Source: a bacterium (GTDB taxonomy: Bacteria; Patescibacteriota; Saccharimonadia; Saccharimonadales; SZUA-47). Taken from it: a stretch of 53,052 nucleotides of DNA. Each line of letters starts with the position of its first letter. The first letter of the stretch is position 1. Below, one piece after another: positions 7,801-41,340 of this stretch. The notes beneath the pieces were generated by a model. The model saw nothing but the letters and a program-made list of their open reading frames with translations. It made no database searches and was not told where the DNA came from. The translations under genes were made by a program, and so were the position numbers. The stretch is from assembly GCA_009923445.1 (NCBI GenBank), contig RFTN01000005.1, positions 1 through 53,052 of the forward strand, read 5' to 3'.

Positions 7801-9618
7801 ATGGCTTATAGCTTCAAGGACAGCCTAGTACTGCATAATAGTCTTAAATGGTTGGACAACACGGGAACTTCGCGATCGAATGTCATAACATTAGATTCAG
7901 GAAACAACATTAATTTAGGAACAAGTTTCGGTGATATTTACTTGAATTCAAATACGACGCGAAGCAATTTCACCTTCTTGAATGTGTCAAGTGGCGGTGT
8001 ATTGGTGCCTCAACGTCTAGGAATAGGATTCTCATCAACAGATTTCAGTTGTTCATTGGCAATCGGACACGACCGGTACATTGGTTTGGACACAAATTCC
8101 GGATTTCTTGGACTTGTTGGGGGAAGCGGTTATACAAGCGGGGGTCAAATACAACTTTATAACAATTCTACCGGTGGGCACGTGTACTTGAAAAGTGGTG
8201 GGGAAATTGCATTGTTTTCTCGGGACTCTAAGAACGTAACGTTGCAAACAGATGGTTCTATTATATTTACACCTGACGGAAGTACCGTAGCATTTGCGGT
8301 GTCGGCCAAACAGATGTCTGTCAACACAAAAGTGACCATTACGGACACAACGGTGTCCTTAAATGGGTCTACAGGTGCATTAGTTGTCCTTGGTGGAATG
8401 GGTGTGACTGGCGACCTCAGTGTGACGGGTGCATTGCAAGTGTCGAGCAGTACAGGTAATATTAGCTTTGATAATACAGTGAGCAGTAGCTCGGCCACAA
8501 CCGGTACCATTCGTGTTTCAGGAGGTATTGGAATAGCTTGTAGTGCCGACGCAAGTTCTATTACATCTGGAGGAGGTTTAACGTGTAGCGGAGGTATTGC
8601 TGTGGCCAGAAAGGCATATTTTGGGGGTGCAGTTACGATTATGGATACAACGGACTCCCTTAATTCCATAACGGGCAGTTTTGTCACGTACGGAGGCATG
8701 GGTGTGAATGGGACCGTATGTGCCCGAAGCTCAGTAGCTCCACAAATACGAATTACGAATTCGGGAAATGGTAATAAGAGCACTCTTGGATTTTATGATA
8801 CAAGTAATTTAACAAATGCTCCATTAGAGATAGGGTACATGGGCTCAGGTGCATTTGGTATTGCATTTAGTACAACATCAAATGTAACTTTTTCCACAGA
8901 CGGCAGTACGGTCTTTACAGGAAATTTGGTGATGCCTCGTGGAAACTCAGAGTCTCGTCCACAAGGAGCTCAAACGGGGTCTATTCGATTTAACACAACC
9001 ACAAATCAATTTGAAGGCTACACTAATGCGACATGGGGAAGTATAAGTGGTAGTGGAAGTGCAAGTGACATATTTGGCACAACGTACTTCGCGCCTGAAT
9101 TGAGCCCTGGTTCCGGTGATGGTAATTTACGGTTTGTGACAAAAAGTCAGGAACGAATGCGTATCAATTCCGCAGGAAATGTAGGCATTGGCACTTCAAG
9201 TCCCGGTTGCACATTGGATGTTACTGGCACGTGTAATTTCCTACTTGGATTCACATCAGGAAGTAGTTACGTTGAAGGTACTTTGGATGTCCTAAATGAC
9301 AGTACATTTTACGGAGCTATAACAAATGCATCAGACATTAGGTTAAAAAAAAACATTGTTGAGCTTGACGACAAATGTATTCTCAACAAGATTGAGACAA
9401 TTCGACCCATAAAATTCAACTACAAGTACGCGAATAGTCCAACACCACACATTGGTTTTATTGCCCAAGACTTCATTCCAGACTTTCCCGAACTTACACG
9501 CTTGGTGGATGGATACTATACACTTGATTACTCTAAAGTGACCGTTGTTTTGTTGATGTGTGTCAAAGAACTTGTAAAACAAGTACGTCAATTACAAAAT
9601 GAATTGCAACGTAAATAA
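7801..9618 (+). CDS. Fibre-like beta-helix protein with a C-terminal intramolecular-chaperone (peptidase S74-like) domain
   Basis: 605 aa. It has repeated GG(M/I)G(V/I) turns (LGGMGVTGDL, SGGIGIACS, YGGMGVNG). The C-terminus, SDIRLKKNIVELDD...IRPIKFNYKY...HIGFIAQDF...LDYSKVTVVLLMCVKEL, matches the endosialidase/tail-fibre chaperone domain as I remember it. Confidence 0.8.
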   Translation: MAYSFKDSLVLHNSLKWLDNTGTSRSNVITLDSGNNINLGTSFGDIYLNSNTTRSNFTFLNVSSGGVLVPQRLGIGFSSTDFSCSLAIGHDRYIGLDTNSGFLGLVGGSGYTSGGQIQLYNNSTGGHVYLKSGGEIALFSRDSKNVTLQTDGSIIFTPDGSTVAFAVSAKQMSVNTKVTITDTTVSLNGSTGALVVLGGMGVTGDLSVTGALQVSSSTGNISFDNTVSSSSATTGTIRVSGGIGIACSADASSITSGGGLTCSGGIAVARKAYFGGAVTIMDTTDSLNSITGSFVTYGGMGVNGTVCARSSVAPQIRITNSGNGNKSTLGFYDTSNLTNAPLEIGYMGSGAFGIAFSTTSNVTFSTDGSTVFTGNLVMPRGNSESRPQGAQTGSIRFNTTTNQFEGYTNATWGSISGSGSASDIFGTTYFAPELSPGSGDGNLRFVTKSQERMRINSAGNVGIGTSSPGCTLDVTGTCNFLLGFTSGSSYVEGTLDVLNDSTFYGAITNASDIRLKKNIVELDDKCILNKIETIRPIKFNYKYANSPTPHIGFIAQDFIPDFPELTRLVDGYYTLDYSKVTVVLLMCVKELVKQVRQLQNELQRK

Positions 9619-13347: not shown

Positions 13348-16300
13348 TTATTGTAGTAATTTTGTTTTCAATTCAGATAAATCATCCCTCCACAAGTCAC
13401 GATCTGTTTTGGACCTGACATCATCCAACCGTGCTTGAGACTTGCCAATCATCTGTTCCAAGGATGTTATTTGCTCATCTGTAAGGGACGCTATTTGCAT
13501 CCTTGTCAAGAAATCGTATGCGCCATCCACCTTGTGATAACTTCGATCCTCAAGTTGTTTATGCACTTGGACCATTGTCTTTTTATGCACTTGGATATCT
13601 CCTGTTATGTACTCGTGAATGAATCGAGCCTTGGCCCTGAGGACTTCCAATTCTTCTTGCAACACGGAAATAAGATGCTGTCGACGCAAAGTGTAGTACC
13701 TTAACCGGATTTCAAAAAATTCCAGAAGAATATCATTCGGATCTTGATACTTCTTGAGTACTAATGACTCATTAAACAAGTACATGTTGTTTGTGGTAAA
13801 TGACTTGACCAACTTTAGTTCCTTTTCAAGTTCACCAGACACTACGAGATGATCTAGGTCAGCTGCATTCTTGAATTCAACTATGAAAAGAATGTCATCG
13901 TTCTCATCCCGTGTCTTGTTCTGTACATCCTTTAACTCGAACTTTTTCTTTTTGTCCTTTGGCTTATTTGTTTTGCTTGTACCTTCAATAAGTGATTCCA
14001 AAAACTCCTTGTAAATAGTCACACCCATGCCAACAGGGATCTCTGTGATCTTGATTTGCTTGTCAGACAACCTTTCCCACTTGCCCTTTGTCACATACAT
14101 ACCCTTGTCAACTTCCTCTACTATGCCATTAAACCCATTAAAATATGGTTTCAATGAGAGCGGCTTGTAGTCATCCTTGTCAATCAATTGTAGTAAGGTA
14201 TTGATGATGTCGACCGGATTAAAACTTGGTATGTATGTAGAATATCCTGTACCAATGCCTTCGCATCCATTCACCAATACCATGGGAATAATTGGTATGT
14301 ACCATTCGGGCTCAATAGACACCCCATCATCATCTAAAAAGTTCAATAGTGGAGTATCATTGGGGTTGAAAATACATTGTGTAATGTCACAAAGTCTTGT
14401 GTAAATGTACCTTGGACTTGCCGCATCTTTTCCGTGCTGTAATCGACTGTTATGTGTAATGATAAAATTGTTTAATAGAAATCTTTCATTTCCATCCAAT
14501 TGCCAACCATTGAACTGTCCATTGTTGACACACTCTACTTTAAAAGAGTTAATGTATGCATTGGCCACTCTAGAATAACTGCTAATTTGTTTTCTCTTAA
14601 CACGTGTAGGAATTGTATCCAAATTGTCCCCATAGATGTTAATCACTGATAACACAGTTGATTCACCTTCTTTAGTAAGGTTTGCTTCACCAACTGTAGT
14701 TCTAAATCCTAGAGAATTGCACAAGAATTCTATGGATTTTATAATATGATGTCGCAACCTTTTACTTTGGCAAATTTCAACTATTGGTACATTGTTTGTT
14801 GTGTCATACGTAACCGTTCCATCCGTATCAATAATACCTGCCAAGAGCTGTAATCTAACATCCTTTGAGTTAACAATGTATTCAATGGGAATATGCTTAT
14901 CATTTAAGAAGTTGCATTTCCTCTGCAACAATTTGTCGTGATTTTCCAAATCAACCTTGTCATGGGTAAGTTCACAATTTATACTATCCATATATGTAAC
15001 CCATTCTCTTAAAATTTCCTCGTCTATTGTTGTAATACCAGAACCATTACTGTTGCCGTCGCCTATCCAAGTACCAAGAATATATGGATTTATAGGAACC
15101 TCTTTACTTTCCCAGTCAATACAAGAGGAGTTGTTTATGGAATAGAATTTGCTTTTAGTTGAACTTGGTAGTTGCAAGAAATCATCCACTTTTATATCTA
15201 TTATACCATCGTCTGGTGAATCAACAGTATCAATGAATTGCTTTAGTTTGTCATGTGCCTCTTGTTTGGTTAGTGTAGACTTGTTGTAATGCTCATGTTC
15301 GGAAGATTCGCAGGTAGACATACTTTTGTGGCATTCTTTCATTTTTGTAGTATCAAAGTATGATACGCGCCAATACTTTCCGGACTCTTTCCATTGAATA
15401 ACTTTGTTATTAGCAAATTTTAATGTAAGAATATGCTTGCTATTTACTGTGTAGCTATCGTTTTTATTTGTTGTTATCTTGTACATGGTATCGACACCAC
15501 TCGTAGTTTGAAGAACTGTTCTAATTGTACCATCATCTCCAATTAGTTTATCACCAACAATAACGTCTCTTGCCTTTTTGAATGTGCCATTCCATAGTAG
15601 TATCTCTGTGTTTGGGTCCAAACATCCGAAATTCCCATCAGGGTACAGCAAATTGATATTGTTTGATCCTACAAATCTCTGGGCCATGTTGATAATTGCT
15701 CCCTGTAACGACGCCTCTCCGTGATGATAAGCAGTCTCTGCTGAAACATAACCTGACAACTGTGCCACCTTGATCAACTGCGTCTTGGATTTTTTCAACA
15801 TATAGTACAAGATCTTTCGTTGAGAAGGCTTCAAACCGTCACACAAACTTGGAATAGAACGTAAGTTGTCGTAAATAGAAAAGTGGATGAGCTCCTTGTT
15901 GATGAGGTCTTGATAGCTCACACGTTTTTGGTTCATGTCCAAATACACATCTCTGTCATATTCTGACAACCACCGTTTACGTTTGTCTGTGCACTTGTCG
16001 GTGGATTTGTTGTTCTTGTCCTTGTCGAACGCTAATAAAATAGACTCGTCACATCGCTTGTCCTTGTAGTAATAGTCGACCTTGAGCTCTTCAAGTCGCT
16101 TAAATGTGTCTTTGGCATCCTCCTTTTTGGACGTGCCCAACCCCTTAAAGTACCTGATTTGGTACCCATTCAGGCTGACTCCAGAGTTTTTCCATTTAAT
16201 GTAGTCCTGCTCCGTGAAAAACTCAACCACTTGTTTGCCCTTGATGGCCTTGACAATCGGTGTCTTCAAGGTTTGTATGTAGTCCAACTTTATCAAACTT

Positions 16301-19242
16301 GGCCACCAATAGTGGAAAAAGTTCACAAGCAGCGCCTTGATATGTGATCCATCCACATCCGAATCCGTAAGAAGCATCACCTTTCCATATCGCAACTCTG
16401 AAGTGTCCTTGTAAACCTTGTCTTGTTTCAATCCAATGATTTGCTTAAGATTGTTTATTTCTTCATTGTTGATAAGCTGTGAGATTGTTGCATCACGTAT
16501 ATTCAAGCAATTATGTGTAATAGTAAAATCATTGATTAAAAACCTACTATTCCCATCAATCCCTATCCCTACATAATTTCCATCATCCGTTTCTTTGATT
16601 TTTATAGTACCAGTCGAGCTTCTTATATTATATAGTATAGTACTCCTTGACTGTTTACGTTGTAACAAAGTAGGGATAATACTTGTATCCCCTGACACCA
16701 TAATACGATATGCATTAGCCTTTTGGCCCGATTCTCTATAATAGTAATTTGTTTTTTTATCCGACACATGTGTATAAAATCCTAAAGAACGTGATAAATA
16801 TACAATGTCATCCACTAATGCTTTATGTTTAGTTGATTGGCAGATTTCAATTCTACCATTTTCAAATACATGCCCATCCGTATCAATGATACCAGCTAAT
16901 ACTTTTAACCTGATTTCTTTTGAATTTATTAAATATTCCTTTGGAATATGTTTATTGTTTATTAAATTGTATTGAGAAAGAAAACCTCTCAGTGGTGCAT
17001 ACCCCTTTTTTTTGTAATTTTGGATTGAGGATATACTATATGTAAATCTACGATGCGTTGATTCAGTAAATTTGGCATCATTATCGTTCCCCCAGTTGCT
17101 TAGGTATTCAATTAGGTGAAAGTCCTCTATTCCATCACTAGGGTTTGCATATCCTGATTTCATACCATCTCCCAACCATAAACCAAGAACATAAGGGTCT
17201 AGTGTAACCTCTTTGTATTCCCAATTCACACATTGTCCTCGTATACCTTTTAATTTTCTTTGATGTCCTTTTGGTATATTCAAGTAATCCTGAATGTTAA
17301 TATCAATGATATTATTATCATCAACATTTGATAGAAATTCTTCCAAGATTGTACGTGCTTTAATTACTTCAATGTCATGTTTGTCTTTATTTTCCAACTC
17401 ATAAGGTATGTATTCAACATTTTTATGTTTTCTTGTATAATGCCTTTTAACAGACTTAGTATTTATCATGACACCACATTCCTTACACTTGACCTTTATA
17501 GATGCTTGACTTTCTTTCCTTATTATCTTTTTTTCTTTTTTGTCCCAATAAATTGTCCTCCATGTATAATTTGATGGTACCCAATAAATTCGTTTATGTT
17601 CTGGCATACATAATGTCAGTATATGTTCATCATTTACTTTATAACTTTCACCTCTATCTTGGGATATTTCATACATTTTACCATAACCTTTGTAAAGTGT
17701 TAATACTGTTCTTGGATTTCCATCATCTCCAATGACAATGTCTCCAATATCAATATCTTTTGCTAATTTAATCTCGCCATTCCATAAAGGTATTTTTGTA
17801 TCCCATGAATTACATTTACCTTTTAAGGGCATAACCCCATACTTTTCAGGTCCGACCACGGAGCGCCCCCACATTGCAAACGTCTTGGCTGAATCTCCCT
17901 CTGTTAAAATAAGGGTGCATTGATTTGAACGCGCTGTCCCAGCCCACAATGCATCTTCTAGCTTTGGGATGTACACCTTGCTTTTCTTTGAGCCGTCAGT
18001 TTGCTTGCTTAGGGACACGGATTCCCTGACCTTGCAAAATTCCACTAATTCATCTGTTATAGAACTTTTGTACAGTTTTGTCATAAAGTTGTCAGTGACC
18101 GTTATTGTACATCCAAAGTCCTTAGAGGGAGTAGTTAACTGTTCCTTTGTTTGACTGTTAAAAGAAGGATTGGCAACTGTTGATCTAAGAAAAAAGAAAA
18201 ATCTGTCTTTGATGAAATTGGGCTTGAGGTCTTTTAACTTTTTCTTGTCTTCAAGTATCTTTTTTAGTTTGTTGATAATCTGATAAAGAATGTAGTCAAC
18301 GTGCTTTCCTCCTTGAGTTGTTGCATTTCCATTAACGAATGAAACTTGTTCGTAATGTGTGTAAGGCACCACTGCGTACTCCCATACGTACTCTGTGACT
18401 TCTCCATTTTTGCTTTTAATCTTTTCTGTATGTGCTTCGTGAATCACCTTTTCATCAAAGTAGTACTTTGTGTAGTCCACAAGACCCTTGCCCTTGAGCT
18501 TTTCATTATTTAAATACACTTGCACATGGTCGTTTGTACATGCTATGCAATCTAATACACGCTTTTGTAAAAGTAATACCGTGTCATCGTCGAGGTGATC
18601 CATCTCAAAACGAGGGTAGTCTGGTACAAACGTAATCTTTGTATAACTTTTTCCCGAATTTGTTGTAATTTTTGCTTTTGTACGTTTTGTCATATTGTCC
18701 GTGTACTCTTGTACAAACTTTTTCTTTTGATCTGAATCAAGTGTTTCTACTATAAATTTTTTTGAGTATATATTCACGCAATTTGATCCGATACCATTTG
18801 TCCCCGCCCCTGTTCGTACGACAGTGTCATCATAATTGCTACCAGACAACAAGTGCCCAAATATCAATTCAGGAACGTATATACCATGCTCCGTGTGGAC
18901 TTGTACAGGTATACCGGTTCCGTTGTTATATACACTTATTTCACCAGTAGTCTTGTCAAAGTCTACTTTAATTGTAGTTACAGTTGGATCCCTAAACGAA
19001 TGATCCGTTGCATTTGTCAAAATTTCATCAAAAATCTTTATAAACCCTGGTGTGTACTGTATCATTTTCTTTTTCATTTGATAACCAGATTCCCCTTTTT
19101 CTGCAACCCATAATTCTTCTGTTTGTTTTTTAATAGATCCAATATACATGCCCGGACGCTCAAGCACATGCTCCCTTTGTGTCAACTTTTTGTACGTGTC
19201 CTCCACCTTTTTCTTTTGGTTGGCCATTGCAAATATATACAT
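13348..19242 (-). CDS. TOP2: DNA topoisomerase II (type IIA), precursor containing two inteins
   Basis: 1964-aa ORF. It has the ATPase domain (LERPGMYIGS, ILTNATDH), TOPRIM (LTEGDSAK...PLKGK|intein|CLNIRDA, LLTDSDVDGSHI) and the breakage-reunion domain (DGLKPSQRKILY...PDGNFG|intein|SRLQHGKDAASPRYIYT, with the catalytic Tyr). The extein total is 1137 aa. An alternative ATG is at 19227 (MANQKKK). Confidence 0.95.
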   Translation of the reverse strand: MYIFAMANQKKKVEDTYKKLTQREHVLERPGMYIGSIKKQTEELWVAEKGESGYQMKKKMIQYTPGFIKIFDEILTNATDHSFRDPTVTTIKVDFDKTTGEISVYNNGTGIPVQVHTEHGIYVPELIFGHLLSGSNYDDTVVRTGAGTNGIGSNCVNIYSKKFIVETLDSDQKKKFVQEYTDNMTKRTKAKITTNSGKSYTKITFVPDYPRFEMDHLDDDTVLLLQKRVLDCIACTNDHVQVYLNNEKLKGKGLVDYTKYYFDEKVIHEAHTEKIKSKNGEVTEYVWEYAVVPYTHYEQVSFVNGNATTQGGKHVDYILYQIINKLKKILEDKKKLKDLKPNFIKDRFFFFLRSTVANPSFNSQTKEQLTTPSKDFGCTITVTDNFMTKLYKSSITDELVEFCKVRESVSLSKQTDGSKKSKVYIPKLEDALWAGTARSNQCTLILTEGDSAKTFAMWGRSVVGPEKYGVMPLKGKCNSWDTKIPLWNGEIKLAKDIDIGDIVIGDDGNPRTVLTLYKGYGKMYEISQDRGESYKVNDEHILTLCMPEHKRIYWVPSNYTWRTIYWDKKEKKIIRKESQASIKVKCKECGVMINTKSVKRHYTRKHKNVEYIPYELENKDKHDIEVIKARTILEEFLSNVDDNNIIDINIQDYLNIPKGHQRKLKGIRGQCVNWEYKEVTLDPYVLGLWLGDGMKSGYANPSDGIEDFHLIEYLSNWGNDNDAKFTESTHRRFTYSISSIQNYKKKGYAPLRGFLSQYNLINNKHIPKEYLINSKEIRLKVLAGIIDTDGHVFENGRIEICQSTKHKALVDDIVYLSRSLGFYTHVSDKKTNYYYRESGQKANAYRIMVSGDTSIIPTLLQRKQSRSTILYNIRSSTGTIKIKETDDGNYVGIGIDGNSRFLINDFTITHNCLNIRDATISQLINNEEINNLKQIIGLKQDKVYKDTSELRYGKVMLLTDSDVDGSHIKALLVNFFHYWWPSLIKLDYIQTLKTPIVKAIKGKQVVEFFTEQDYIKWKNSGVSLNGYQIRYFKGLGTSKKEDAKDTFKRLEELKVDYYYKDKRCDESILLAFDKDKNNKSTDKCTDKRKRWLSEYDRDVYLDMNQKRVSYQDLINKELIHFSIYDNLRSIPSLCDGLKPSQRKILYYMLKKSKTQLIKVAQLSGYVSAETAYHHGEASLQGAIINMAQRFVGSNNINLLYPDGNFGCLDPNTEILLWNGTFKKARDVIVGDKLIGDDGTIRTVLQTTSGVDTMYKITTNKNDSYTVNSKHILTLKFANNKVIQWKESGKYWRVSYFDTTKMKECHKSMSTCESSEHEHYNKSTLTKQEAHDKLKQFIDTVDSPDDGIIDIKVDDFLQLPSSTKSKFYSINNSSCIDWESKEVPINPYILGTWIGDGNSNGSGITTIDEEILREWVTYMDSINCELTHDKVDLENHDKLLQRKCNFLNDKHIPIEYIVNSKDVRLQLLAGIIDTDGTVTYDTTNNVPIVEICQSKRLRHHIIKSIEFLCNSLGFRTTVGEANLTKEGESTVLSVINIYGDNLDTIPTRVKRKQISSYSRVANAYINSFKVECVNNGQFNGWQLDGNERFLLNNFIITHNSRLQHGKDAASPRYIYTRLCDITQCIFNPNDTPLLNFLDDDGVSIEPEWYIPIIPMVLVNGCEGIGTGYSTYIPSFNPVDIINTLLQLIDKDDYKPLSLKPYFNGFNGIVEEVDKGMYVTKGKWERLSDKQIKITEIPVGMGVTIYKEFLESLIEGTSKTNKPKDKKKKFELKDVQNKTRDENDDILFIVEFKNAADLDHLVVSGELEKELKLVKSFTTNNMYLFNESLVLKKYQDPNDILLEFFEIRLRYYTLRRQHLISVLQEELEVLRAKARFIHEYITGDIQVHKKTMVQVHKQLEDRSYHKVDGAYDFLTRMQIASLTDEQITSLEQMIGKSQARLDDVRSKTDRDLWRDDLSELKTKLLQ
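14449..15624 (-). mobile_element. Intein 2 of TopoII (392 aa) with a LAGLIDADG homing-endonuclease domain
   Basis: It starts CLDPNTEILLWNG (block A), has block B NSKHILTL and LAGLIDADG motifs YILGTWIGDG and LQLLAGIIDTDG, and ends FLLNNFIITHN with +1 Ser. It is inserted 14 residues upstream of the catalytic Tyr. In frame, residues 1207-1598. Confidence 0.9.
16510..17814 (-). mobile_element. Intein 1 of TopoII (435 aa) with a LAGLIDADG homing-endonuclease domain
   Basis: It starts CNSWDTKIPLWNG, has block B NDEHILTL and LAGLIDADG motifs YVLGLWLGDG and LKVLAGIIDTDG, and ends FLINDFTITHN with +1 Cys. It is inserted in the TOPRIM PL(R/K)GK|(I/C)LN motif. In frame, residues 477-911. Confidence 0.9.
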
Positions 19243-19304: not shown

Positions 19305-22300
19305 ATGCCAAAGCCGGTTGTGAACAACAGGATTACATACCCGAATCTATATGGGCGGGTTATTGAACATGACATGTTTCTTAATCAAGGTGTGCGGTTA
19401 GAAGATTCACCTACATTTGCCAATTTGCAGTTGACAGGAAACGCTGTAATTAATGGAAGTTTATATGTTTATGGCAACACAGTGGTGATGAATACCAATA
19501 TAACAGAGTTTGAAGACAATATTTTATTATTAAATCGTCTTGAAACGGGCCCTGGAGTAACTTTGAATCAGTCGGGCATAGAAATAGATCGTGGAACCTT
19601 GGAGAATTACAGGATCGTATACAATGAATCAGATGGGACTTTTCGTTCCGGGGTACTCAGTGATCTACGGATCATTGTACACAAGGAGCCTACAAGTTTA
19701 AACAACGGAATCGTATTTTGGAACGACGCTCTTAAACGTGTTGAGTCACGTGACACCATAGATATCGCAATACGTTCAAGTGTGACTGCAGAGTCTACGA
19801 GTGCGACTACGGGTGGGGTGTGCCTGGCGGGAGGATTGGGTGTCAAGGGGAACATATACACAAATGGCAAAATTGTCTTGGGGAACAACGCAACGACATT
19901 TCAGAATGTATCTGGAGAAACGGTTATAACATCTACAGGGGGGATCACATTTAATTCGACAGGAGCTATGTTTCCGTACAACAAAAAAGTATCTTTTGGC
20001 AATAGTACACAGAGTATATCTGCAGATGCCGGTACAAAAACATTGTCCATTACTGGGGATGGTTACATTGATTTCAGCCTTCGATCGGGGTATAGTATTA
20101 ACGTCCCAAATCAAATACCTATAACCTTTTCTACACAAAACGAAAAGGTGTATACGGACGGCAGCAATAACATGGTCATTGCGGGTTCACAGGACATTCT
20201 ACTGAACCCTGGGTCGAATAAAAAGGTGCTTGTGCCAGAAACAGCATCAATTGCATTTTACAATGCAACGCAACGTATATATGGTACGATAGCAGCTGAT
20301 TTGATGCTGACAGCTGGAAACGACATTTACCTCACTCCGGGGGGTTTAAAGGACGTAAAGGTGCCGGTGGACAGTGGTGTGCGATTTGGCACTTCAAGGG
20401 TGTCTTGTGATAGTGCGGATACCTTGCAGGTTACAAGTGTAGGAGACATCAAGTTAAATCCGGGCACATCTGTAAAAATTCCTGTAGAAACTGCCTTGTC
20501 ATTTGGCAACAGTACAGGAGAGACGATTCGTGCCGATACATATGGCAACTTGAACATGGGTGCTGGGGGGTCTGTAGTTGTAATGAGCTCTACAAACTCG
20601 GTGCATCCCAGCAGTGGTAGTTTAGTTGTCAAGGGGGGCATTGGAGTAGGTCGTGATGTGTGCATTGCAGGAGATCTTCAAGTAAATGGAAATATGACTG
20701 TGCAGGGAACAACTGTGACAGTCGATACTCAAACATTACTTGTAAAGGATAACTTGATTGTACTGAACAATGGTCCTTCACCGGCAGCCGACGGAGGTAT
20801 TCTTTTCAAGAGGTATGCAAACGGTGTTGACAATGCACTTGGTCAAAACTATGCAGCGGTATTCTACAAAGAGTCACGTGACTTGATGACATTTGCGTAC
20901 ACCAACAGCGATCCTGGAGCGGGTCAGGTAAATATTTCAGAGTATCTAGGAATTGAGACGAAATTGATCAGGGTAACGGATACATCTGATGCTACAAATG
21001 TGAGCAATGGCAGTATTCAAACGCCGGGTGGACTTGCTGTTGGAAAGGCCGTAGTTGTAGGGGACACATTATTTTCATCGGCGGTAAGTACAGGGACTGT
21101 GTATGCCCTTAATGGATCTATAGGAACGCTTAGTGCAACGAACTCAATGTTCTCTCAGACGACGGTTCAAAACACAGTTGTCACAAGTTCGGCTGTATTC
21201 AAAGACCAGGTGACGTTTACAAAGGACCCCGTTGTCGAGGGCACAATGTACTTTACAAATACGCGTCCCACCACAACGTTGAGTTCAGGTGCAATGATTG
21301 TGTCTGGAGGTGTGGTGATTAGCAATACTGCCAATGCAGTTGGAGCTTTTAATGGAGGTGCATTGAACGTTGCTGGTGGCATCTGGGTGGGTGGTGACAT
21401 TCTTGTTACTGGAAGTATCAATGGAGTTGGTAATGCATCCAACTCGTATGCATATTTGACTTTGACAAGTACAGATCAAGCGGTAAACAGCACATCGGGA
21501 TCATTAGTGACATTTGGTGGTATTACGGTCATGTCGACTGCTTCTGCACAATCGGTGACAAATGGAGGGGGTCTGCTTGTATTGGGTGGTGCAAGCATTG
21601 TGAAAAATGTAATCGTGGGGGAGTCATTTACTTCTGATTCTGTCAACACAGGTGACTTGACTGTAGACAGGTCGTTTGGGTACAATGGAAATGGGCTCAT
21701 GGATTACATTACACAATCTGGATGGAATTACTTAGGGACACTGCAAGCCAACGAGTTTACAGAGTTTGTTCTCACAGGTAACATGGCGCAAATGGGATTC
21801 CTTTTTGCTGTAGACAATGCCGGTATGTTCAAGCCAATGGTGACAAAACGTGGCACCGTGGCCTCATGTACAGTAGTCGTGTACGCTTACCTGCAGTCGT
21901 ATTATGTATTTGTACGTACGACTGATGTAACCGCTTTGCACGTGCAAGTAAAGCGTGGGGAGTCATTTACGGTGACATACGAGGGAAATGGTGTAAATCC
22001 CAACGGAACGGAGAGCGGGTATACGGGTGGGTATACAGTTGTGTACAACTCAAGCAATACGGATGTATTTACAACAGTGACAGTTGGAAGTACTTTTATT
22101 CATGGAGACTTGGCGTCCTCGTCTCCAATTACTAAATTTGGAGTTGGTAGTACTGATACAAAAGCTTTGCTACTCTCAAAATCGCAAGTGTCGAATGACA
22201 TGGGCACAGGAGAGATTGCAGGAGACACAATGAACGCGATCGTGTCTTTTGTACTTCCGGCGCAACTGGCGGTGGGGTCTAGTCAGGTCAAGTTACCGAA

Positions 22301-23618
22301 TACCGCAAGCTCGACGGACTCTTTTTATCGTGAATATTGGATTCGGGCGGGTAATCAGGTTCGACAGATTGTAGGTTACACAGGTTCACAACGTGTGGTA
22401 CAAGTGGACATTCCTTTTACGGTGCAGCCGGCTGAATTAGACACGGTGTATCTATTCAATGGGAGTTACACGGGACTGTACCCAAACGGGGATGTGTACA
22501 AGATTGCTCGTGTGGATGTGGTTGACGGTACAATTGGAGTTGTAAGGCTATGTGATTTATCTATATCAAGTGCATTTATACAAAGTGACCTTACTGCAAC
22601 AGGAGGGATCACGGTATTATCTACAAGAGACACTACGAGTTTGACGAGCGGTGCGTTAACGGTTAGTGGTGGTGTGGGTATAGGTGGAGGTCTGTGTGTT
22701 GGAGACGTGGTCAATGTGTACAATGATTTGATTTTCCATGGGACAAATAATTCAATACACTTGGGCAATTATCACCTTGCGTATAGTACATCGGGTTTGA
22801 CACTATTTACAGGAACCGCAGCTACACTTTATATGGCGACATCTGGGGGTGTCTATTGCTCAGGATTAACACTAGAACAGGGGACAATCATTACACCAAA
22901 TACACAAGGCATTTTGGGGCTTTCGGGAGACACTTTTGGGTCTGTGGGGTCTAGAGTAATAGTAGGAGATCGCACAGAGTTGTTTGCACGTACAACTGGA
23001 AGTGTAAATGTAGGCGTGGGAACAACAGCTAAACTTGTTGTCAGTGAAGACCACTTGGATATTCGGTGCACACAGTACAGTGAGTCAAGTAGTACAGGTG
23101 CCCTGCGTGTGGACGGTGGAATAACGGTGCGATCACAACAAAACAGTGTGTCTGTGACAAATGGAGGTTCATTGACTGTCATGGGTGGTGTATCGATTGT
23201 AAAGGACTTGTTTATAGGAGGAAACATTTACCTAAATGGCAATGTTCAAAGTACTGGTGCTTCGGAGACGCCAAGTTTGACATTCAGTGGAGCAACGAAT
23301 TGTAATGTGATTGGGTACAGTAATTCGTCACTGATATATGTGAGTAACGAGGCAATGTTTACATTCACTTCTAGTGTAGAGGCAACAGTTGCATATAGCA
23401 CGTGCCAATTCGAGTTTACAGTGCCTCGAAGAACCAATACCTTTGTAAATAGAGCCGACATTTCCATAGTGTGTTCGGGCTACACAGAGCCACTAGACGT
23501 TGTGTATGGTGTATTAGGAGTAGGAGTTGTTGGTTCTACACGTGGATTAGTCAAATTCCATAGCAATGCGGCAACAGTGCATTACATCACTGTTATGTGT
23601 AGATACACAGCAAGCTAA
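19305..23618 (+). CDS. Giant fibre-like beta-helix protein (paralogue of the 7801 and 37633 genes)
   Basis: 1437 aa. It has many GG(I/L/V)(G/T/S)(V/I) turns (AGGLGVKGNIY, KGGIGVGRDVCIAGDL, SGGVGIGGGLCVGD, MGGVSIVKDLFIGGNIYLNG). It shares modules with 37633-41340: YAYLTLTSTDQAVNSTSGSLVTFGGITV, LLVKDNLIVLNNGP, YYREYWIRAGNQVRQIVGY. Confidence 0.85.
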   Translation: MPKPVVNNRITYPNLYGRVIEHDMFLNQGVRLEDSPTFANLQLTGNAVINGSLYVYGNTVVMNTNITEFEDNILLLNRLETGPGVTLNQSGIEIDRGTLENYRIVYNESDGTFRSGVLSDLRIIVHKEPTSLNNGIVFWNDALKRVESRDTIDIAIRSSVTAESTSATTGGVCLAGGLGVKGNIYTNGKIVLGNNATTFQNVSGETVITSTGGITFNSTGAMFPYNKKVSFGNSTQSISADAGTKTLSITGDGYIDFSLRSGYSINVPNQIPITFSTQNEKVYTDGSNNMVIAGSQDILLNPGSNKKVLVPETASIAFYNATQRIYGTIAADLMLTAGNDIYLTPGGLKDVKVPVDSGVRFGTSRVSCDSADTLQVTSVGDIKLNPGTSVKIPVETALSFGNSTGETIRADTYGNLNMGAGGSVVVMSSTNSVHPSSGSLVVKGGIGVGRDVCIAGDLQVNGNMTVQGTTVTVDTQTLLVKDNLIVLNNGPSPAADGGILFKRYANGVDNALGQNYAAVFYKESRDLMTFAYTNSDPGAGQVNISEYLGIETKLIRVTDTSDATNVSNGSIQTPGGLAVGKAVVVGDTLFSSAVSTGTVYALNGSIGTLSATNSMFSQTTVQNTVVTSSAVFKDQVTFTKDPVVEGTMYFTNTRPTTTLSSGAMIVSGGVVISNTANAVGAFNGGALNVAGGIWVGGDILVTGSINGVGNASNSYAYLTLTSTDQAVNSTSGSLVTFGGITVMSTASAQSVTNGGGLLVLGGASIVKNVIVGESFTSDSVNTGDLTVDRSFGYNGNGLMDYITQSGWNYLGTLQANEFTEFVLTGNMAQMGFLFAVDNAGMFKPMVTKRGTVASCTVVVYAYLQSYYVFVRTTDVTALHVQVKRGESFTVTYEGNGVNPNGTESGYTGGYTVVYNSSNTDVFTTVTVGSTFIHGDLASSSPITKFGVGSTDTKALLLSKSQVSNDMGTGEIAGDTMNAIVSFVLPAQLAVGSSQVKLPNTASSTDSFYREYWIRAGNQVRQIVGYTGSQRVVQVDIPFTVQPAELDTVYLFNGSYTGLYPNGDVYKIARVDVVDGTIGVVRLCDLSISSAFIQSDLTATGGITVLSTRDTTSLTSGALTVSGGVGIGGGLCVGDVVNVYNDLIFHGTNNSIHLGNYHLAYSTSGLTLFTGTAATLYMATSGGVYCSGLTLEQGTIITPNTQGILGLSGDTFGSVGSRVIVGDRTELFARTTGSVNVGVGTTAKLVVSEDHLDIRCTQYSESSSTGALRVDGGITVRSQQNSVSVTNGGSLTVMGGVSIVKDLFIGGNIYLNGNVQSTGASETPSLTFSGATNCNVIGYSNSSLIYVSNEAMFTFTSSVEATVAYSTCQFEFTVPRRTNTFVNRADISIVCSGYTEPLDVVYGVLGVGVVGSTRGLVKFHSNAATVHYITVMCRYTAS

Positions 23619-31289: not shown

Positions 31290-32969
31290 TTATGCATTTA
31301 ATACTGAATTCATGAATTTAGAAATGCATTCTTTAAGATCGTTATAAATGACGGGTTTAAGGAGGTGATCATTAAACTTGTGAGTTGCAATATTGGAATT
31401 ATATGCTGTTATGGCAACAAAATAGGGTTTGCGTTTATTGTGATAGAAGTCTTGAGCCCATTGCATGACCTGTTCACCATCAAGGACAGGCATTCGAATA
31501 TCTAGGAACACAATATCAAATGTGCGTCTTTTAAGAGCCTCAATGCATTTCTTGCCATTTTCTACAACCGTAATATCTGAAAAACCCAGTTTATTCAGGA
31601 ATCCAACAATGACTTTTTGATTTATAGCGATGTCCTCTGCCAGACACACTGCTATGTCTTCTCGAAGAGACTTGGTATCGGCTGCGTGTTGGTGGGTTTT
31701 TTGTGAGCTCAAAATTTGTATACACAACTTTTTCAAATGAGATTCTTTGAATGGCTTTGTGAGAACCGCCTTAAAAAGGGATTGATTAAATCCCGGACGA
31801 GTGTCTCCAAGACTACTAAGTGCAATAAGTGGTATCATTTTGTTGTTAAATTGCTTCTGCTCTCGTAGCTTTGCCGCAAATGTTGGGCCATCTATCTTGG
31901 GCATACAATAATCTATCAATCCTATATGAAACTCTGTAAGCTTTGTAACATACAATGCCTCCTCACTTGTACTAAAAGAATATGCTTTCATGCCCCACTT
32001 GTTCACCATCCCCGTCAAACTAATACGATTATACAAATTATCATCAACAATGAGTACATTAAGATTGTTTAGAACCTCGTCGTTTAGAGCTTCCTCGACC
32101 TGTAATGGATATACTGTTTCATGTACAGGCGGACTTTGCATAACAAAACTAAATTTAGATCCCTTTCCAAGCTCTGTCCAATCTAACCAAACGGCTCCGC
32201 GCATCAGTTCAGCTAATTCCCTGCAAATAGACAATCCCAACCCTGTGCCTGTTGAACTTGTAGTGTAAGGTACAAACAATTTTGATCTGTAGTCTTCTGA
32301 TATGCCTGTGCCCGTGTCCACAACATCAAATCTAATAAAAGTTTCAGATGCGCGATGTGGCTCAGCATGCACCCTAAATTCGCGCTTTGAAATACGTTTC
32401 ACATTTAAACTTACTGTCCCAGCTTCCGTGAACTTTATAGCGTTTACAAGCAAATTAAGCACGACTTGTTTAACACGTTGCGGGTCACCAAGTACACCTT
32501 TTATCCCTGGGTCAATGTTGTAAATGTACTCGATACCCTTTTCACAAATTTTGTTTGCAAGTATGTCATTAGCAGATTCTACCACCGACTGCAAACTAAA
32601 CACGGTGATGTCCAATGTCATTTTCCCAGATTCTAATTTTGACAAATCCAGAATATCATTTATAATACTCATCAAATTATAAGCACATTCTTTGATCATC
32701 TGTATGTACTCTGTTTGCGTCTGTGTCAACTCAGTGTCTTCAAGCAATGTCAACATACCTATAATTCCATTGAGTGGAGTACGAATTTCATGACTCACAT
32801 TGGCTAAAAAGGAATTTTGATTACAAACTGCCACCGTATAATTTTTATACTTAAACGATGTACACCCATAATCATTGCGCTTTCCATTTGTATATACCTG
32901 GTTTCCATGAGCGTCAGTCACATTCACTCCCATCGGGAATCCATCAAAAAACCCAAAATCGGGACTCAT
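31290..32969 (-). CDS. Hybrid sensor histidine kinase with two receiver domains and no TM or large sensor domain
   Basis: It has the H box SHEIRTPLNGIIGM, N box LLVNAIKFT, G1 DTGTGI and G2 GTGLGLSICRELAELMRG. REC1 is VLIVDDN...LIDYCMPKIDG...VLTKPF and REC2 is CLAEDIAINQ...VFLDIRMPVLDG...LLKPV. The track start at 32999 is TTG and the first ATG is at 32969. Confidence 0.85.
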   Translation of the reverse strand: MSPDFGFFDGFPMGVNVTDAHGNQVYTNGKRNDYGCTSFKYKNYTVAVCNQNSFLANVSHEIRTPLNGIIGMLTLLEDTELTQTQTEYIQMIKECAYNLMSIINDILDLSKLESGKMTLDITVFSLQSVVESANDILANKICEKGIEYIYNIDPGIKGVLGDPQRVKQVVLNLLVNAIKFTEAGTVSLNVKRISKREFRVHAEPHRASETFIRFDVVDTGTGISEDYRSKLFVPYTTSSTGTGLGLSICRELAELMRGAVWLDWTELGKGSKFSFVMQSPPVHETVYPLQVEEALNDEVLNNLNVLIVDDNLYNRISLTGMVNKWGMKAYSFSTSEEALYVTKLTEFHIGLIDYCMPKIDGPTFAAKLREQKQFNNKMIPLIALSSLGDTRPGFNQSLFKAVLTKPFKESHLKKLCIQILSSQKTHQHAADTKSLREDIAVCLAEDIAINQKVIVGFLNKLGFSDITVVENGKKCIEALKRRTFDIVFLDIRMPVLDGEQVMQWAQDFYHNKRKPYFVAITAYNSNIATHKFNDHLLKPVIYNDLKECISKFMNSVLNA

Positions 32970-33045
32970 CTTACTGATTTTAATCAAGAAATTTAACAAA
33001 GTAAATTTGTAAAGTAAATTTACTAGGTAGTATTAAGAACCACAA

Positions 33046-37546: not shown

Positions 37547-37632
37547 TTATTGATTCAGTTTCATTGAGTTTAAATACAATACAATTCGTTCGAGAGTTGT
37601 ATTCTTTTTAGAGGTAAAATTTAATTAACGTG

Positions 37633-40600
37633 ATGAGTGACATCCTTTTACGAGGCATCACTGTAGACTCGGGTAACTTGACGGTGCGCAATGGAACAGT
37701 GCAAGTAACAAACACAACCCCAAGCACTTTACTAACGGGGTCTCTTGTAGTCAACGGAGGTATTTCTATTTCAACTACCGAGGATGCTACTTCTATTTCA
37801 TCAGGTGGAGGTGTGACCGTGGCAGGTGGGTTAAGCACCCTAAAAAGCGTAATTATCGGATCCAACTTGGACCTTTCTAGTCCTATGGGTACAATGGCAG
37901 TGGAAGGTGTGTCGGAACGGCGTTTTTTTGTAGATACCACCGTACAGAAAAAGATCACGTTTAGTCCTGATGGTGTGAATTTGGCCATGAAAGTCCTCCC
38001 TGACACGGTGGCTATTTACTCAACAGCCGATTCGACGGGGAGTAGTACAGGAGCTCTTGTAATTGGCGGTGGACTTGGAGTAGCAAAAGACATTTGTGTA
38101 GGTGGCGATATAAATGTATCTGGATACACGTATGCATACGGATCTATTTACTTGGATACAACAGGTATATTGTCCACAAGCACATCCGGTGTTTCATTGT
38201 CAAGTCCTGTAGGCATTGTCATAGACTCGGATAAGTTGTCCGTTCAAGATAAAATGAACATTAGTGACACAGGAGTCGATGTGTACACGACGATGACATT
38301 ACACGACACGACGTGGTCATCTGGGAGCACAGGTAGTGTTGTTATTAGCGGAGGACTTACAGTGCTGTGTACAACAGACTCCTTTTCACCATCACAAGGA
38401 GGCGCGGTTACTATTCTTGGAGGTCTTGGAGTTCTTAAAAATGTAGATGTTTTGGGATCGGTCAAGGTAAACACAAATAATGACAATACATCCAAGTTAA
38501 TACTGCATTCTCAAGCAAATATTGGTACAACAAATGGAAATATTGTATGCATATCAGATGAACACATTTTTATGCATCCGAGTAGTACACGTCCAAGTGC
38601 CAAGTTCACAACAACTGGACTTGTTCTTGGAGAAACGTGCACATTAGTATCCAATACAACAGGTCTTACAATTACAAGTTCGCAATCAAATACCCTCTTG
38701 CACGTAGGAGATATGACTTTAGGTTATCTTGGACACACTAATGTAGTATCTTCTGGTAACGACTTGGTCATACAAAATGAATTGATTGTAACTACATCAG
38801 GAAACGTACATGTTCAAAGTCAATTTACATGTGATGGCAATGTCTACTTTACAGATACAACAAATGCAACAAGTTCAACTGAGGGTGGTGCAGTGGATGT
38901 GTTAGGAGGCATTGGTATTGCAAAGGATACCTACATTGGTGGCAAGGTAGTGCTCGGAGACGTGTGCACACTTGACCTATTTAATGATAATTTGTTAATT
39001 AGTACGAATGAAGACACTGGTGTAAAGGTATTCTCTAATGGCGGTTTAGTGTCTCCAAGGGACGTCGATTTAGAACTGTTTACTCTTGGGTTTGACAGGG
39101 GAAATACTAATTACTCAACACTACGTATCACAGGAGCGGGGTCTGGGGTTAATTGGGCAATCTCTTCAGACAGTGATGGAACTGGATCAAGAATGCGTAT
39201 CGACCTGCAGACGTCCACCACAGCCAGTGTCACGGTGTCTACAATGGGCAACGTAGGAATTAATACTACGTCACCTGATGCTACGTTGGATGTGAACGGT
39301 ACGTTGCGTTGTAATGGCCCAGTTTCATGTGTTGACACGACTGTTAGCACAATCAGTGCAGGCGCATTGAGTGTGACGGGCGGAGTCACCGTGCACTGCA
39401 CTACAAATGCAACTGGGTTGTCAAGTGGAGGTGGGGTAACTGTACAAGGAGGCGTGTCTGTGAACAAGGATGCCTACTTTGGTGGAGTTGTCACTTTTAC
39501 TGATTCGACACCTTCGACAAGTTACTTGACAGGTGCAGTGAATATCCGTGGAGGTCTGACAATTTCAGGAAACGCACCTGCTGGAAATGTAGGAAATGGT
39601 GGTGCGCTTACTGTTGCTGGAGGTGCGTCCATTGGAGGTGACTTATGGGTAGGTGGCGGCATCAATGGAAGTGGTAGTAGTAGCAGTAGTTACGCTTACC
39701 TCACGCTGACCGCAACGGACGAATCTGTCAACTTTACATCAGGTGCACTTGTTACATTTGGAGGGATTACGATTCAATGTTCTACAGATTCCACAAGCGT
39801 GACAAATGGTGGCAGTTTGCTAGTACGCGGCGGGGCAAGTTTTGGTGGTGGAGTGTATATTGAAGGTGACAATTTCCTTTACGGTACCCAAAATTACGTC
39901 ACAAAGTACTCTAGTACAATATTCAATGTATATGATAACTTGCGTTTCCTTAAATTTTCTGTCGACTCCAATCCTAATTTCTCCATTACTCGTTATGACT
40001 CCCTTGAACAACCTAAAGAAAGATCACTGGAAATCAACTCTGTCACAGGCGAGCTGACAATTGCTTCACCAGCTGTTAGTGTCACAGGAACAACCTCTTT
40101 TACTTGTACGCAAAATGCAAGCAATGTGTCCTCTGGAGGTGCGGTAACAGTTGTAGGAGGCTTAGCTATCAGCAAGGACACGTACATTGGCGGAGACCTA
40201 CGAGTTGTTTCCTCCACCGAGAGCCTCAACTGCAGTACAGGCGCTGTTATGGTTAGCGGAGGTGTAGGTATAGGTGGTGCGTTGAATGTACTTGGTAATA
40301 CAATCATAGGAGGAAATCTCACTGTCAATGGCACAACAACAAGTATACAAACAGTTGACACAGTGCTCAAAGACAACGTGATACTTCTTAATGCCGGTCC
40401 TGTTGGGTCACGTGACTCAGGTGTAGCAATACAACGCTATCAAATGGACAATGATGCAGGCGAGGGAGACGTTGTACAGCACACTGGAGGGCAGGCGTTT
40501 ACACTTCCTGATCAAACGGGCACACAGACAACCGAGGTGAAATTGGGAATAAGTGCAAGTTCTACAAACGACTACTACAATGGTTGGTGGATACGTGTAG

Positions 40601-41340
40601 CAAGCGGATTTAGCAACAATCAAACAAGAAAAGTTGTAAGTTACAATGGCACAACGCGTGTGGCTGGACTCAGTTCCGCGTGGACCTCACAAAATCCTGG
40701 AATTGGGGACGTGGTGATTTTGTACAACAAGCCTTATGTTGGTCTCACGTTTAACGAGCTATCTGATCGCTTTGAATTTGCAAGTTGTGCAACAGACTTT
40801 AAAACCCCTTCTACAGACTATCTTGACGTGTGTGTAAACAAGTTGTATGCGTCCGTTCTTGATGTTTCAAGTGGAGTTTCTGTGAGCGCGACATCAGACG
40901 CCACTTCAAGTACATATGGCGGTGCATTGACCGTTCTTGGTGGCGCGTCTGTTGCAAAAGGGATGTACATTGGTGGGGATCTAGTTGTTTCCGGGAAACC
41001 CATGACACCAAGCTCTGGAGACATATTTAAGACAACGCAATTTAATGCAACTAATGCCGCCACTTTACAAAATGTGAATGGGCTTATTTTCAATACGGAT
41101 GTATGGGGCTTTGACACATGGCTCTCTGCAAGACTTGTACTCTCAACAGGTACACTTGCTGCCCACTATCACATTCGCGGTGTAAACAAATCATCTTCTT
41201 TTGAAATAGTAACAACGTATGTTGGAGATGATTTAGGTATCGATTTTGCAATAACCAACCTTGGACAAATACAATACACAACTCCAAATTACACAGGGTT
41301 CGTGAGTATTCAATTTAAATTTAGGGCATTGTCTGTGTAA
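37633..41340 (+). CDS. Giant fibre-like beta-helix protein (paralogue of the 7801 and 19305 genes)
   Basis: 1235 aa from the first ATG (the track starts on GTG at 37630). It has more than 15 GG(L/I/V)(G/S/T)(V/I) turns (GGGLGVAKDICVGGDINV, LGGIGIAKDTYIGGKVVLG, SGGVGIGGALNVLGNTIIGGNLTVNG). It shares modules with 19305-23618: YAYLTLTATDESVNFTSGALVTFGGITI, VLKDNVILLNAGP, YYNGWWIRVASGFSNNQTRKVVSY. Confidence 0.85.
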   Translation: MSDILLRGITVDSGNLTVRNGTVQVTNTTPSTLLTGSLVVNGGISISTTEDATSISSGGGVTVAGGLSTLKSVIIGSNLDLSSPMGTMAVEGVSERRFFVDTTVQKKITFSPDGVNLAMKVLPDTVAIYSTADSTGSSTGALVIGGGLGVAKDICVGGDINVSGYTYAYGSIYLDTTGILSTSTSGVSLSSPVGIVIDSDKLSVQDKMNISDTGVDVYTTMTLHDTTWSSGSTGSVVISGGLTVLCTTDSFSPSQGGAVTILGGLGVLKNVDVLGSVKVNTNNDNTSKLILHSQANIGTTNGNIVCISDEHIFMHPSSTRPSAKFTTTGLVLGETCTLVSNTTGLTITSSQSNTLLHVGDMTLGYLGHTNVVSSGNDLVIQNELIVTTSGNVHVQSQFTCDGNVYFTDTTNATSSTEGGAVDVLGGIGIAKDTYIGGKVVLGDVCTLDLFNDNLLISTNEDTGVKVFSNGGLVSPRDVDLELFTLGFDRGNTNYSTLRITGAGSGVNWAISSDSDGTGSRMRIDLQTSTTASVTVSTMGNVGINTTSPDATLDVNGTLRCNGPVSCVDTTVSTISAGALSVTGGVTVHCTTNATGLSSGGGVTVQGGVSVNKDAYFGGVVTFTDSTPSTSYLTGAVNIRGGLTISGNAPAGNVGNGGALTVAGGASIGGDLWVGGGINGSGSSSSSYAYLTLTATDESVNFTSGALVTFGGITIQCSTDSTSVTNGGSLLVRGGASFGGGVYIEGDNFLYGTQNYVTKYSSTIFNVYDNLRFLKFSVDSNPNFSITRYDSLEQPKERSLEINSVTGELTIASPAVSVTGTTSFTCTQNASNVSSGGAVTVVGGLAISKDTYIGGDLRVVSSTESLNCSTGAVMVSGGVGIGGALNVLGNTIIGGNLTVNGTTTSIQTVDTVLKDNVILLNAGPVGSRDSGVAIQRYQMDNDAGEGDVVQHTGGQAFTLPDQTGTQTTEVKLGISASSTNDYYNGWWIRVASGFSNNQTRKVVSYNGTTRVAGLSSAWTSQNPGIGDVVILYNKPYVGLTFNELSDRFEFASCATDFKTPSTDYLDVCVNKLYASVLDVSSGVSVSATSDATSSTYGGALTVLGGASVAKGMYIGGDLVVSGKPMTPSSGDIFKTTQFNATNAATLQNVNGLIFNTDVWGFDTWLSARLVLSTGTLAAHYHIRGVNKSSSFEIVTTYVGDDLGIDFAITNLGQIQYTTPNYTGFVSIQFKFRALSV

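Follow-up and report, generated by a model that had tools for sequence, protein, structure and literature searches.

How a single gene came to carry two inteins that resemble each other, and whether one of them is a copy of the other, is the question raised by a locus on contig RFTN01000005.1 (assembly GCA_009923445.1), of which positions 1 to 53,052, the whole stretch analysed, are referred to here as the window. On the minus strand, at 13348..19242, lies an open reading frame (ORF) of 1964 amino acids (aa) plus a stop codon, which an earlier description made from the letters alone (the sequence-only reading) had taken for a 1137-aa type IIA topoisomerase (Top2) interrupted twice in frame by paralogous inteins, one of which had spread ectopically to a second site of the same gene. 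The interrupted topoisomerase was confirmed by Pfam and by collinearity with intein-free homologues and human TOP2A, and the spread from one site to the other was contradicted. With a probability of about 0.88, the locus is the eukaryote-type Top2 gene of an Algavirales-like giant virus, encoding a 1964-aa precursor with two independent inteins of the PI-SceI family. Judging by its sequence relatives, each intein was acquired independently, from its own same-site lineage in the Top2 of related viruses, and the two were not copied from one another.

The ORF runs through 5.9 kb without interruption, and its product unites in one chain the type IIA set of GHKL ATPase, transducer, TOPRIM (with EGDSA and DxD) and winged-helix region with the catalytic tyrosine; the Pfam domains HATPase_c, DNA_gyraseB, Toprim, TOPRIM_C and DNA_topoisoIV were found, and the catalytic motifs EGDSA, DxD and RY are all intact. 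Removal of both inserts leaves an extein of 1137 aa (1132 aa if translation starts at Met6). The start codon is probably that of Met6 (window position 19227) rather than the first ATG at 19242, because the same precursor, recorded in the database on a separate 31-kb contig, is 1959 aa long and homologues align from residue 6. Human TOP2A and TOP2B and yeast Top2 aligned with the extein over its full length (E = 1e-245 to 1e-256), and the alignment of the spliced extein with human TOP2A (E = 1e-256) was free of gaps at both junctions: PLKGK/CLNIRDA (a slash marks a splice junction) lay opposite the human PLRGK-ILNVREA, and PDGNFG/SRLQHGKDAASPRY lay opposite the human IGQFG-TRLHGGKDSASPRY with Tyr805. 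A set of 80 intein-free viral homologues was likewise collinear with the extein (up to 77% identity, 99% coverage, no junction gap). In the precursor, the two junctions read PLKGK/CNSWD...ITHN/CLNIRDA and PDGNFG/CLDPN...ITHN/SRLQHGKDAASPRYIYT.

All parts of the gene were placed on the minus strand. The N-extein (17815..19242, aa 1-476, delimited by Pfam and the TOP2A alignment) comprises the ATPase, the transducer and the first part of TOPRIM with the EGDSA motif (17887-17901), and ends in PLKGK. Intein 1 (16510..17814, ORF aa 477-911, 435 aa) follows and is thus inserted inside TOPRIM, between EGDSA and DxD. The middle extein (15625..16509, aa 912-1206) starts with the +1 Cys of CLNIRDA, contains the rest of TOPRIM with the DSDVDG motif (16348-16365), TOPRIM_C and the start of the breakage-reunion region, and ends in PDGNFG. 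Intein 2 (14449..15624, ORF aa 1207-1598, 392 aa) separates it from the C-extein (13348..14448, aa 1599-1964), which starts at the +1 Ser of SRLQHGKDAASPRYIYT and carries the catalytic Tyr codon (14407-14409). Counted from junction 2, the counterpart of human TOP2A Tyr805 is residue 14, which places intein 2 13 residues upstream of this tyrosine. The boundaries drawn in the sequence-only reading (17814-16510 and 15624-14449) were exact to the base, and its statements that intein 1 splits a TOPRIM motif and that intein 2 lies 14 residues before the catalytic tyrosine agree with these alignments; the comparison with eukaryotic Top2 and the search for intein-free alleles in related viruses, both of which it had proposed, gave the collinear matches described above. 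At one related locus (L001) the empty alleles read ...CCCTTAAAGGGTAAA/GTGTTAAATGTCCGT... at the site of intein 1 and ...GGTAATTTTGGT/AGTAGATTGCAA... at that of intein 2, and these sequences, as well as those of locus L004, are candidate endonuclease targets.

The nature of the inserts was established by profile, sequence and structure comparisons. The Pfam Hom_end_hint profile matched both above its cut-off (E = 1.8e-16 for intein 1 and 3e-23 for intein 2); Hom_end and LAGLIDADG_3 were also found in the inserts, in intein 1 above their own cut-offs (Hom_end 3.5e-10). A sequence search of PDB with the inserts returned PI-SceI and Prp8 inteins (intein 1 to PI-SceI 1.3e-13). AlphaFold2 models of high confidence were obtained for intein 1 (pLDDT 90.7, pTM 0.87, from a 42-sequence alignment) and intein 2 (pLDDT 90.9, pTM 0.88, from a 40-sequence alignment), and both were matched by Foldseek to PI-SceI over the full length (E = 2e-27 and TM 0.67 for intein 1, E = 3e-25 and TM 0.72 for intein 2) and to the Hint folds of the Prp8, gp41-1 and DnaB inteins and of hedgehog. 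Both inserts start with Cys1, invariant across the 40-sequence alignment, in which His64 of block B is also invariant and Asn61 nearly so, as are, without exception, the terminal His391 and Asn392. Block B was located by alignment at 17611..17637 in intein 1 (VNDEHILTL, of the N-x-x-H type) and at 15421..15447 in intein 2 (VNSKHILTL), and the C-terminal ends are THN/C and THN/S, respectively. Two LAGLIDADG helices with the catalytic Asp were kept in each intein: LGLWLGDG (17164..17187, Asp216) and LAGIIDTDG (16873..16899, Asp313) in intein 1, LGTWIGDG (15055..15078) and LAGIIDTDG (14818..14844) in intein 2. The two inserts are therefore class-1 inteins of the PI-SceI type, composed of a Hint domain and a LAGLIDADG endonuclease and retaining every class-1 splicing residue; the terminal residues, block B and paired LAGLIDADG motifs named in the earlier description were all present, as was the Hint similarity that it had proposed to check.

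The closest structurally known system is PI-SceI, the VMA1 intein of S. cerevisiae (PDB 1VDE, 1DFA, 1LWS), with which the inserts share the Hint domain, the DNA-recognition region, the nested endonuclease with two LAGLIDADG motifs and the Pfam families Hom_end_hint and Hom_end, together with equivalents of Cys1, N-x-x-H, Asp218, Asp326, Lys301, His453 and Asn454. The HMMER alignment of intein 1 with PI-SceI paired Asp216 with Asp218, Asp313 with Asp326 and Lys288 with Lys301, the latter of each pair belonging to the PI-SceI active site, and it set the terminal HN against His453-Asn454. The sequence identity is, however, only 18-20%, and PI-SceI resides in a V-ATPase rather than in a viral Top2. 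Unlike PI-SceI, intein 1 has an additional C2H2-type zinc knuckle in the Hint/DNA-recognition part, and intein 2 is modelled with no beta-sheet in its first endonuclease subdomain and is followed by Ser, not Cys, at +1.

With all these residues intact, both inteins are predicted to splice autocatalytically. The reaction would begin with an acyl shift at Cys1, followed by transesterification to the +1 Cys (intein 1) or the +1 Ser (intein 2), cyclisation of the terminal Asn aided by the penultimate His, and an acyl shift back that would yield the peptide bond. Splicing of this kind would restore TOPRIM as PLKGK-CLNIRDA and the segment of the active-site tyrosine as PDGNFG-SRLQ...RY. Each intein would most likely have come in by homing: when viruses co-infect a cell, an allele lacking the intein is cut by its endonuclease, and repair then copies the element into it.

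In structure, the two inteins differ in two regions. The zinc knuckle of intein 1 (17425..17487, CKECGVMINTKSVKRHYTRKH, CKEC...HYTRKH, with Cys110, Cys113, His125 and His130, identified by alignment and AlphaFold2) has the pattern CxxC...HxxxxH and was modelled as a beta-hairpin and a helix. The second region is the endonuclease. For intein 1 beta-strands were predicted in both subdomains, three of them in the stretch leading from the first LAGLIDADG motif to the KHIP block, and its endonuclease is apparently intact. For intein 2 the first subdomain was predicted without strands and the second with four, and pLDDT was low at residues 224-227. In this stretch intein 2 is missing a segment that the longer inteins found at the same site in other viruses have, and it is shorter than all but one of its alleles at that site (356-577 aa). 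The predicted structure thus points to a DNA-binding saddle eroded in the first endonuclease subdomain of intein 2, which probably persists only because its splicing would be needed for a working Top2.

The origin of the two inteins was approached through the distribution of intein sites in related genes. Top2 genes 62-77% identical to that of the window are mostly intein-free (about 1150 aa), and many carry one intein. Five insertion sites were mapped among the close relatives and a sixth in a more distant protein. Site a is located in the ATPase domain (GTNGxGSK/C...THN/CTNIYS), site b reads SKH/S...VHN/TDGKK, site c, that of intein 1, reads PLKGK/C...THN/CLN, site d reads LTDAD/C...VHN/CDGSH, and site e, that of intein 2, reads PDGN(F or H)G/C...THN/SRL; the sixth site lies inside the EGD/SA catalytic motif of the more distant Top2 P0365. 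Sites b and d are occupied by inteins of the Pfam PF14890 type. Top2 proteins with two inteins were found in public metagenomes in the combinations a+c (P0071, P0255), a+e (P0253, P0256), b+e (P0096), d+e (P0275) and c+e (P0307). The last of these shares both sites with the window; it differs in that its inteins are reduced to 326 and 140 aa, with the endonuclease lost, and its extein is about 50% identical to that of the window. Most metagenomic alleles differ from the window gene in having a single intein, and the sampled host genomes are much more AT-rich. The window Top2 is accordingly one more case of a known pattern, a well-preserved one, since double-intein alleles already exist.

Each intein was found to be far closer to the inteins that occupy the corresponding site in other viruses than to its partner. 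Aligned over the full length, intein 1 and intein 2 are 35% identical (E = 6e-71). Intein 1 is 62-72% identical to 12 site-c inteins of other viral Top2, which share its insertion point and flanks (P0030, P0034, P0064 and P0120 among them); the next-closest group is formed by the site-a inteins (46-54%), and the identity to RNA-polymerase inteins is about 36%. Intein 2 is 44-64% identical to the site-e inteins, again with the same insertion point and flanks (P0031, P0055, P0070, P0096, P0113), followed by the inteins of RPB1 (FYNNS/CLAPDTP...THN/SGKAKH) at 36-37% and the site-c group at 34-36%. In a neighbour-joining tree of 105 inteins (corrected p-distances, 356 columns) the site-c and site-e clades each had 100% bootstrap support, and the support for c+e and for a+c+e was 0%; a repeat run again gave 0% for c+e. 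No supported placement was obtained in these trees for a sister of the site-e clade, RPB1 inteins included (bootstrap at most 11%). The phylogeny that the sequence-only reading had proposed as a check of sisterhood thus returned two fully supported site clades and no union of the two.

A word-indexed search with intein 2 gave just 13 matches, and an exhaustive HMMER search of 1.84 billion cluster representatives was therefore run with the same query, which returned 12,644 relatives; a word-indexed search with intein 1 missed the long Top2 alleles, and the alleles were therefore taken from matches of the extein query. The top HMMER relatives of intein 2 were all site-e inteins, in host exteins 29-65% identical to that of the window. 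In the same ranking intein 1 would come 80th; of the 79 representatives that outscore it, 39 are proteins other than topoisomerases, and the checked hosts among these were RPB1, an SNF2 helicase, primase-helicases and PolB.

Among the alternatives, the one that survives best, although improbable, holds that both inteins are ancient and vertically inherited, with the patchy distribution produced by many precise losses and no recent homing. The carriers of site-e inteins speak for it: since their exteins are only 29-65% identical to that of the window, the invasion of site e would have taken place long ago. Intein 2 itself showed no excess of synonymous similarity to its allele (0.40 identity at four-fold sites vs 0.36 for the extein, p = 0.58, one site-e allele), and the closest Top2 relatives of the window gene (74-77% identity) are intein-free. 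For intein 1, however, divergence at synonymous sites is lower than in the exteins when the same pairs of genomes are compared: against two site-c alleles, four-fold identity was 0.56-0.58 (chance 0.39-0.41) for the intein and 0.35-0.38 (chance 0.30-0.33), close to saturation, for the exteins (Fisher p = 0.001 and 0.0006). Across the 13 site-c carriers the inteins were on average more alike than the exteins (mean pairwise identity 0.75 vs 0.71, with the intein the more similar in 69% of pairs), and intein and extein distances were uncorrelated (Spearman 0.09). The composition of intein 1 does not match the window genome either. Its G+C content at third codon positions (GC3) is 0.225, below every one of 33 window ORFs (0.369 +/- 0.042, minimum 0.291), and fits the Top2 genes of AT-rich relatives (0.13-0.24, and 0.13-0.18 in those with site-c inteins). 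The Top2 extein, with a GC3 of 0.448, and the exon of the major capsid protein (MCP) gene, with 0.517, stand at the high end among the window ORFs.

The apparently intact endonuclease, the less diverged synonymous sites, the uncorrelated distances and the low GC3 together suggest that intein 1 is young and mobile and entered this lineage after its split from the compared relatives, the donor probably being an AT-rich virus. Intein 2 has a GC3 of 0.314, inside the range of the genome, and site-e inteins are on average less alike (0.55) than their exteins (0.70). These values suggest an older resident with no sign of recent transfer, whose composition has partly adapted to the genome. Homing elements follow a cycle of invasion, fixation and decay, and intein 2 with its truncated endonuclease would fit the late stage of such a cycle. 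One gene would then display two stages of the homing cycle, a recent invader of foreign composition and an older resident with an eroding endonuclease.

Still less probable is the idea that one intein was duplicated in this genome or in a recent ancestor and inserted at a second site of Top2, which would make the two sister paralogues. The two do belong to the same family and align from end to end at 35% identity, and for Prp8 of Anaeramoeba an intein has been reported to have spread from one site of the gene to another (sites b and d; PMC10710043). The resemblance noted earlier is in this sense real, since the inteins are homologous; the motifs listed in support of it, however, are not specific to the pair. 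KHIP..Y..NSK..RL..LAGIIDTDG and RFL.N.F.ITHN occur also in inteins of RNA polymerase, helicase and RFC-like ATPase, and the motif set is therefore a hallmark of a very large intein family of giant viruses. Against the duplication stand the far closer same-site relatives of each intein in other viruses, the c+e support of 0 in 100 replicates in both runs, and the 39 non-Top2 representatives that outrank intein 1 in similarity to intein 2. The zinc knuckle is a further argument: it was kept in every full-length site-a and site-c intein and is missing in site-e inteins, being confined to the a/c lineage. Similarity of the target DNA, which might have served as the basis of an ectopic jump, was rejected as well, because the central 30 bases of sites c and e have only 5 matches, and in a scan of the gene with either target the other ranked in the lower half of all positions. 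The idea of intragenic duplication is refuted because each intein groups with external inteins and not with its partner, and a sister-paralogue origin was rejected on all three lines, the identities, the tree and the exhaustive search.

That the inserts are relics unable to splice, or artefacts of assembly, and the Top2 non-functional, as might be argued from a metagenome-type assembly and from splicing deduced from sequence, is the least probable of the alternatives and hardly compatible with the unbroken 5.9-kb frame, the intact splicing residues of both inteins and Top2 motifs EGDSA, DxD and RY, the occurrence of the same precursor on another contig and the presence of inteins at exactly these junctions in dozens of independent assemblies.

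Several points weigh against the reading of two independently acquired inteins. The analysis shows the sequence and fold, the family to which the inserts belong, their phylogeny and composition and the patterns at synonymous sites, whereas splicing, the activity or inactivity of the endonucleases and the direction and timing of the transfers are deduced from them. The trees were built by neighbour-joining on corrected p-distances and not by maximum likelihood, and their deep nodes had support of at most 11%. Part of the low GC3 of intein 1 may be due to codon selection being generally weaker on inteins; two AT-rich relatives likewise have an intein with an AT content slightly above that of its own extein. 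The synonymous-site comparison covers two site-c alleles and one site-e allele. The decay of the endonuclease of intein 2 rests on the predicted structure and an alignment gap, and both catalytic Asp residues remain. Finally, with an assembly of metagenome type a chimeric join of variants is possible, though the same 1959-aa protein occurs on the separate contig.

Although a jump between sites c and e was rejected, an older jump within the gene is possible because the nearest non-allelic relatives of intein 1 reside at Top2 site a, which holds no intein in the window gene. Leaving alleles aside, the inteins of sites a and c are closer to each other than to any others (46-54%), and the a+c grouping had 74% neighbour-joining bootstrap support when three more divergent site-a inteins were added. 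The targets share the core K/C-x-N-I; in the window, 13 of 15 junction bases match (AAxTGCxTGAATATA), and when site a (empty) and site c (reconstituted) were each used to scan about 3390 positions, they ranked 1-8 with each other (6-184 in two other genomes). The unoccupied site a of the window reads GIGSN/CVNIYS, with the +1 Cys codon at 18778..18780 on the minus strand as located by alignment of intein-free alleles. Cys at this position was found in only 2 of 57 such alleles, and the window has Asn instead of the usual Lys at -1. The +1 Cys at the empty site may have been left behind by a site-a intein that has since been lost, or it may shield the site from cutting. The zinc knuckle common to both groups seems dispensable for splicing, because it is deleted in the inteins P0071_c and P0100_a. 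Five proteins (P0123, P0127, P0129, P0131 and P0237) are intein-like and 41-48% identical to intein 1, lack Cys1 and end in HD, HC or HA, and in some of them the flanks resemble those of site a (…CTNIIS); the five may be derivatives that do not splice or that are free-standing.

The second, unrelated family, PF14890, occupies site b in P0029, P0095 and P0096 and site d in P0015, P0021, P0040, P0041, P0053, P0076 and P0088. Site-b and site-d inteins are 47-49% identical over the full length, in a comparison restricted to this pair, and their targets are /TDG and /CDG. This makes b and d a suggestive second candidate pair for intragenic spread. Taken with the a/c pair, it leads to the tentative proposal, for which we would give somewhat less than an even chance, that Top2 is a hotspot for inteins in this group of algal-type giant viruses, with six or more sites, and that intragenic jumps have occurred between pairs of sites other than c/e. 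If this were true, the Top2 family would offer a natural setting in which to examine the retargeting of homing endonucleases to new sites; with six sites and two intein families, each present at two sites, it could be used for this, the window adding only one example.

In the literature searched, the only Top2 intein named was that of Cafeteria roenbergensis virus, which is called Top2-a in the InBase scheme and whose homing endonuclease is given as complete (PMC3423634, Table 3). It resembles the inteins described here in being an endonuclease-bearing intein of a giant-virus type IIA topoisomerase; that gene has one intein rather than two. No systematic description of these Top2 intein sites was found in the same literature. 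In Anaeramoeba, multiple inteins per protein and intragenic transfer have been described, with giant viruses as likely vectors (PMC10710043). The Prp8 b/d inteins of that study are similar to the present pair in that related inteins occupy two sites of one gene; they branch together, however, whereas the window pair does not. The nearest Top2 analogue of Prp8 b/d is the a/c pair. Homing endonucleases have also been proposed, for Bodo saltans virus, to act as weapons between co-infecting giant viruses (PMC5871332). As Top2 is a giant-virus marker, the 1964-aa product should be split in annotation into the extein and two inteins before trees are built or domains counted.

The remainder of the window is that of a nucleocytoplasmic large DNA virus, with an MCP exon, a P11-type minor capsid protein, an A32-like ATPase and an A22-like resolvase. 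The C-terminal MCP exon matched Capsid_NCLDV (1e-56), with Vp54 of Paramecium bursaria Chlorella virus 1 (PBCV-1) as its closest relative, and the virus is called Algavirales-like only by this similarity and by its DUF57xx neighbours. Four group I introns were found in the MCP gene with Rfam RF00028, at 44634-44998, 45339-45753, 46960-47284 and 47380-47762 on the minus strand (70-101 bits against a gathering score of 50), in agreement with the earlier remark that self-splicing elements, MCP introns included, sit in essential genes of this genome. MCP exons were placed on the same strand at 43503-44309 and about 45082-45300, and an ORF of 162 aa with no Pfam match lies between the introns at 46120-46608, also on the minus strand. 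A search of the six-frame translation of the window gave no further Hom_end_hint inteins. Among the metagenomic proteins, P0254 is an RPB1 fragment carrying three Hom_end_hint inteins.

Some other genes of the window were also recorded. At 31290-32999 on the minus strand this viral genome encodes a hybrid sensor histidine kinase of 569 aa that combines HisKA and HATPase_c with a response-regulator receiver domain. Two ORFs rich in Gly, Ser, Thr and Val, of 1437 and 1236 aa and with no Pfam match, are located on the plus strand at 19305-23618 and 37630-41340, and a 605-aa ORF ending in a Peptidase_S74 intramolecular chaperone domain lies at 7801-9618 on the same strand; all three look like fibre or spike proteins.

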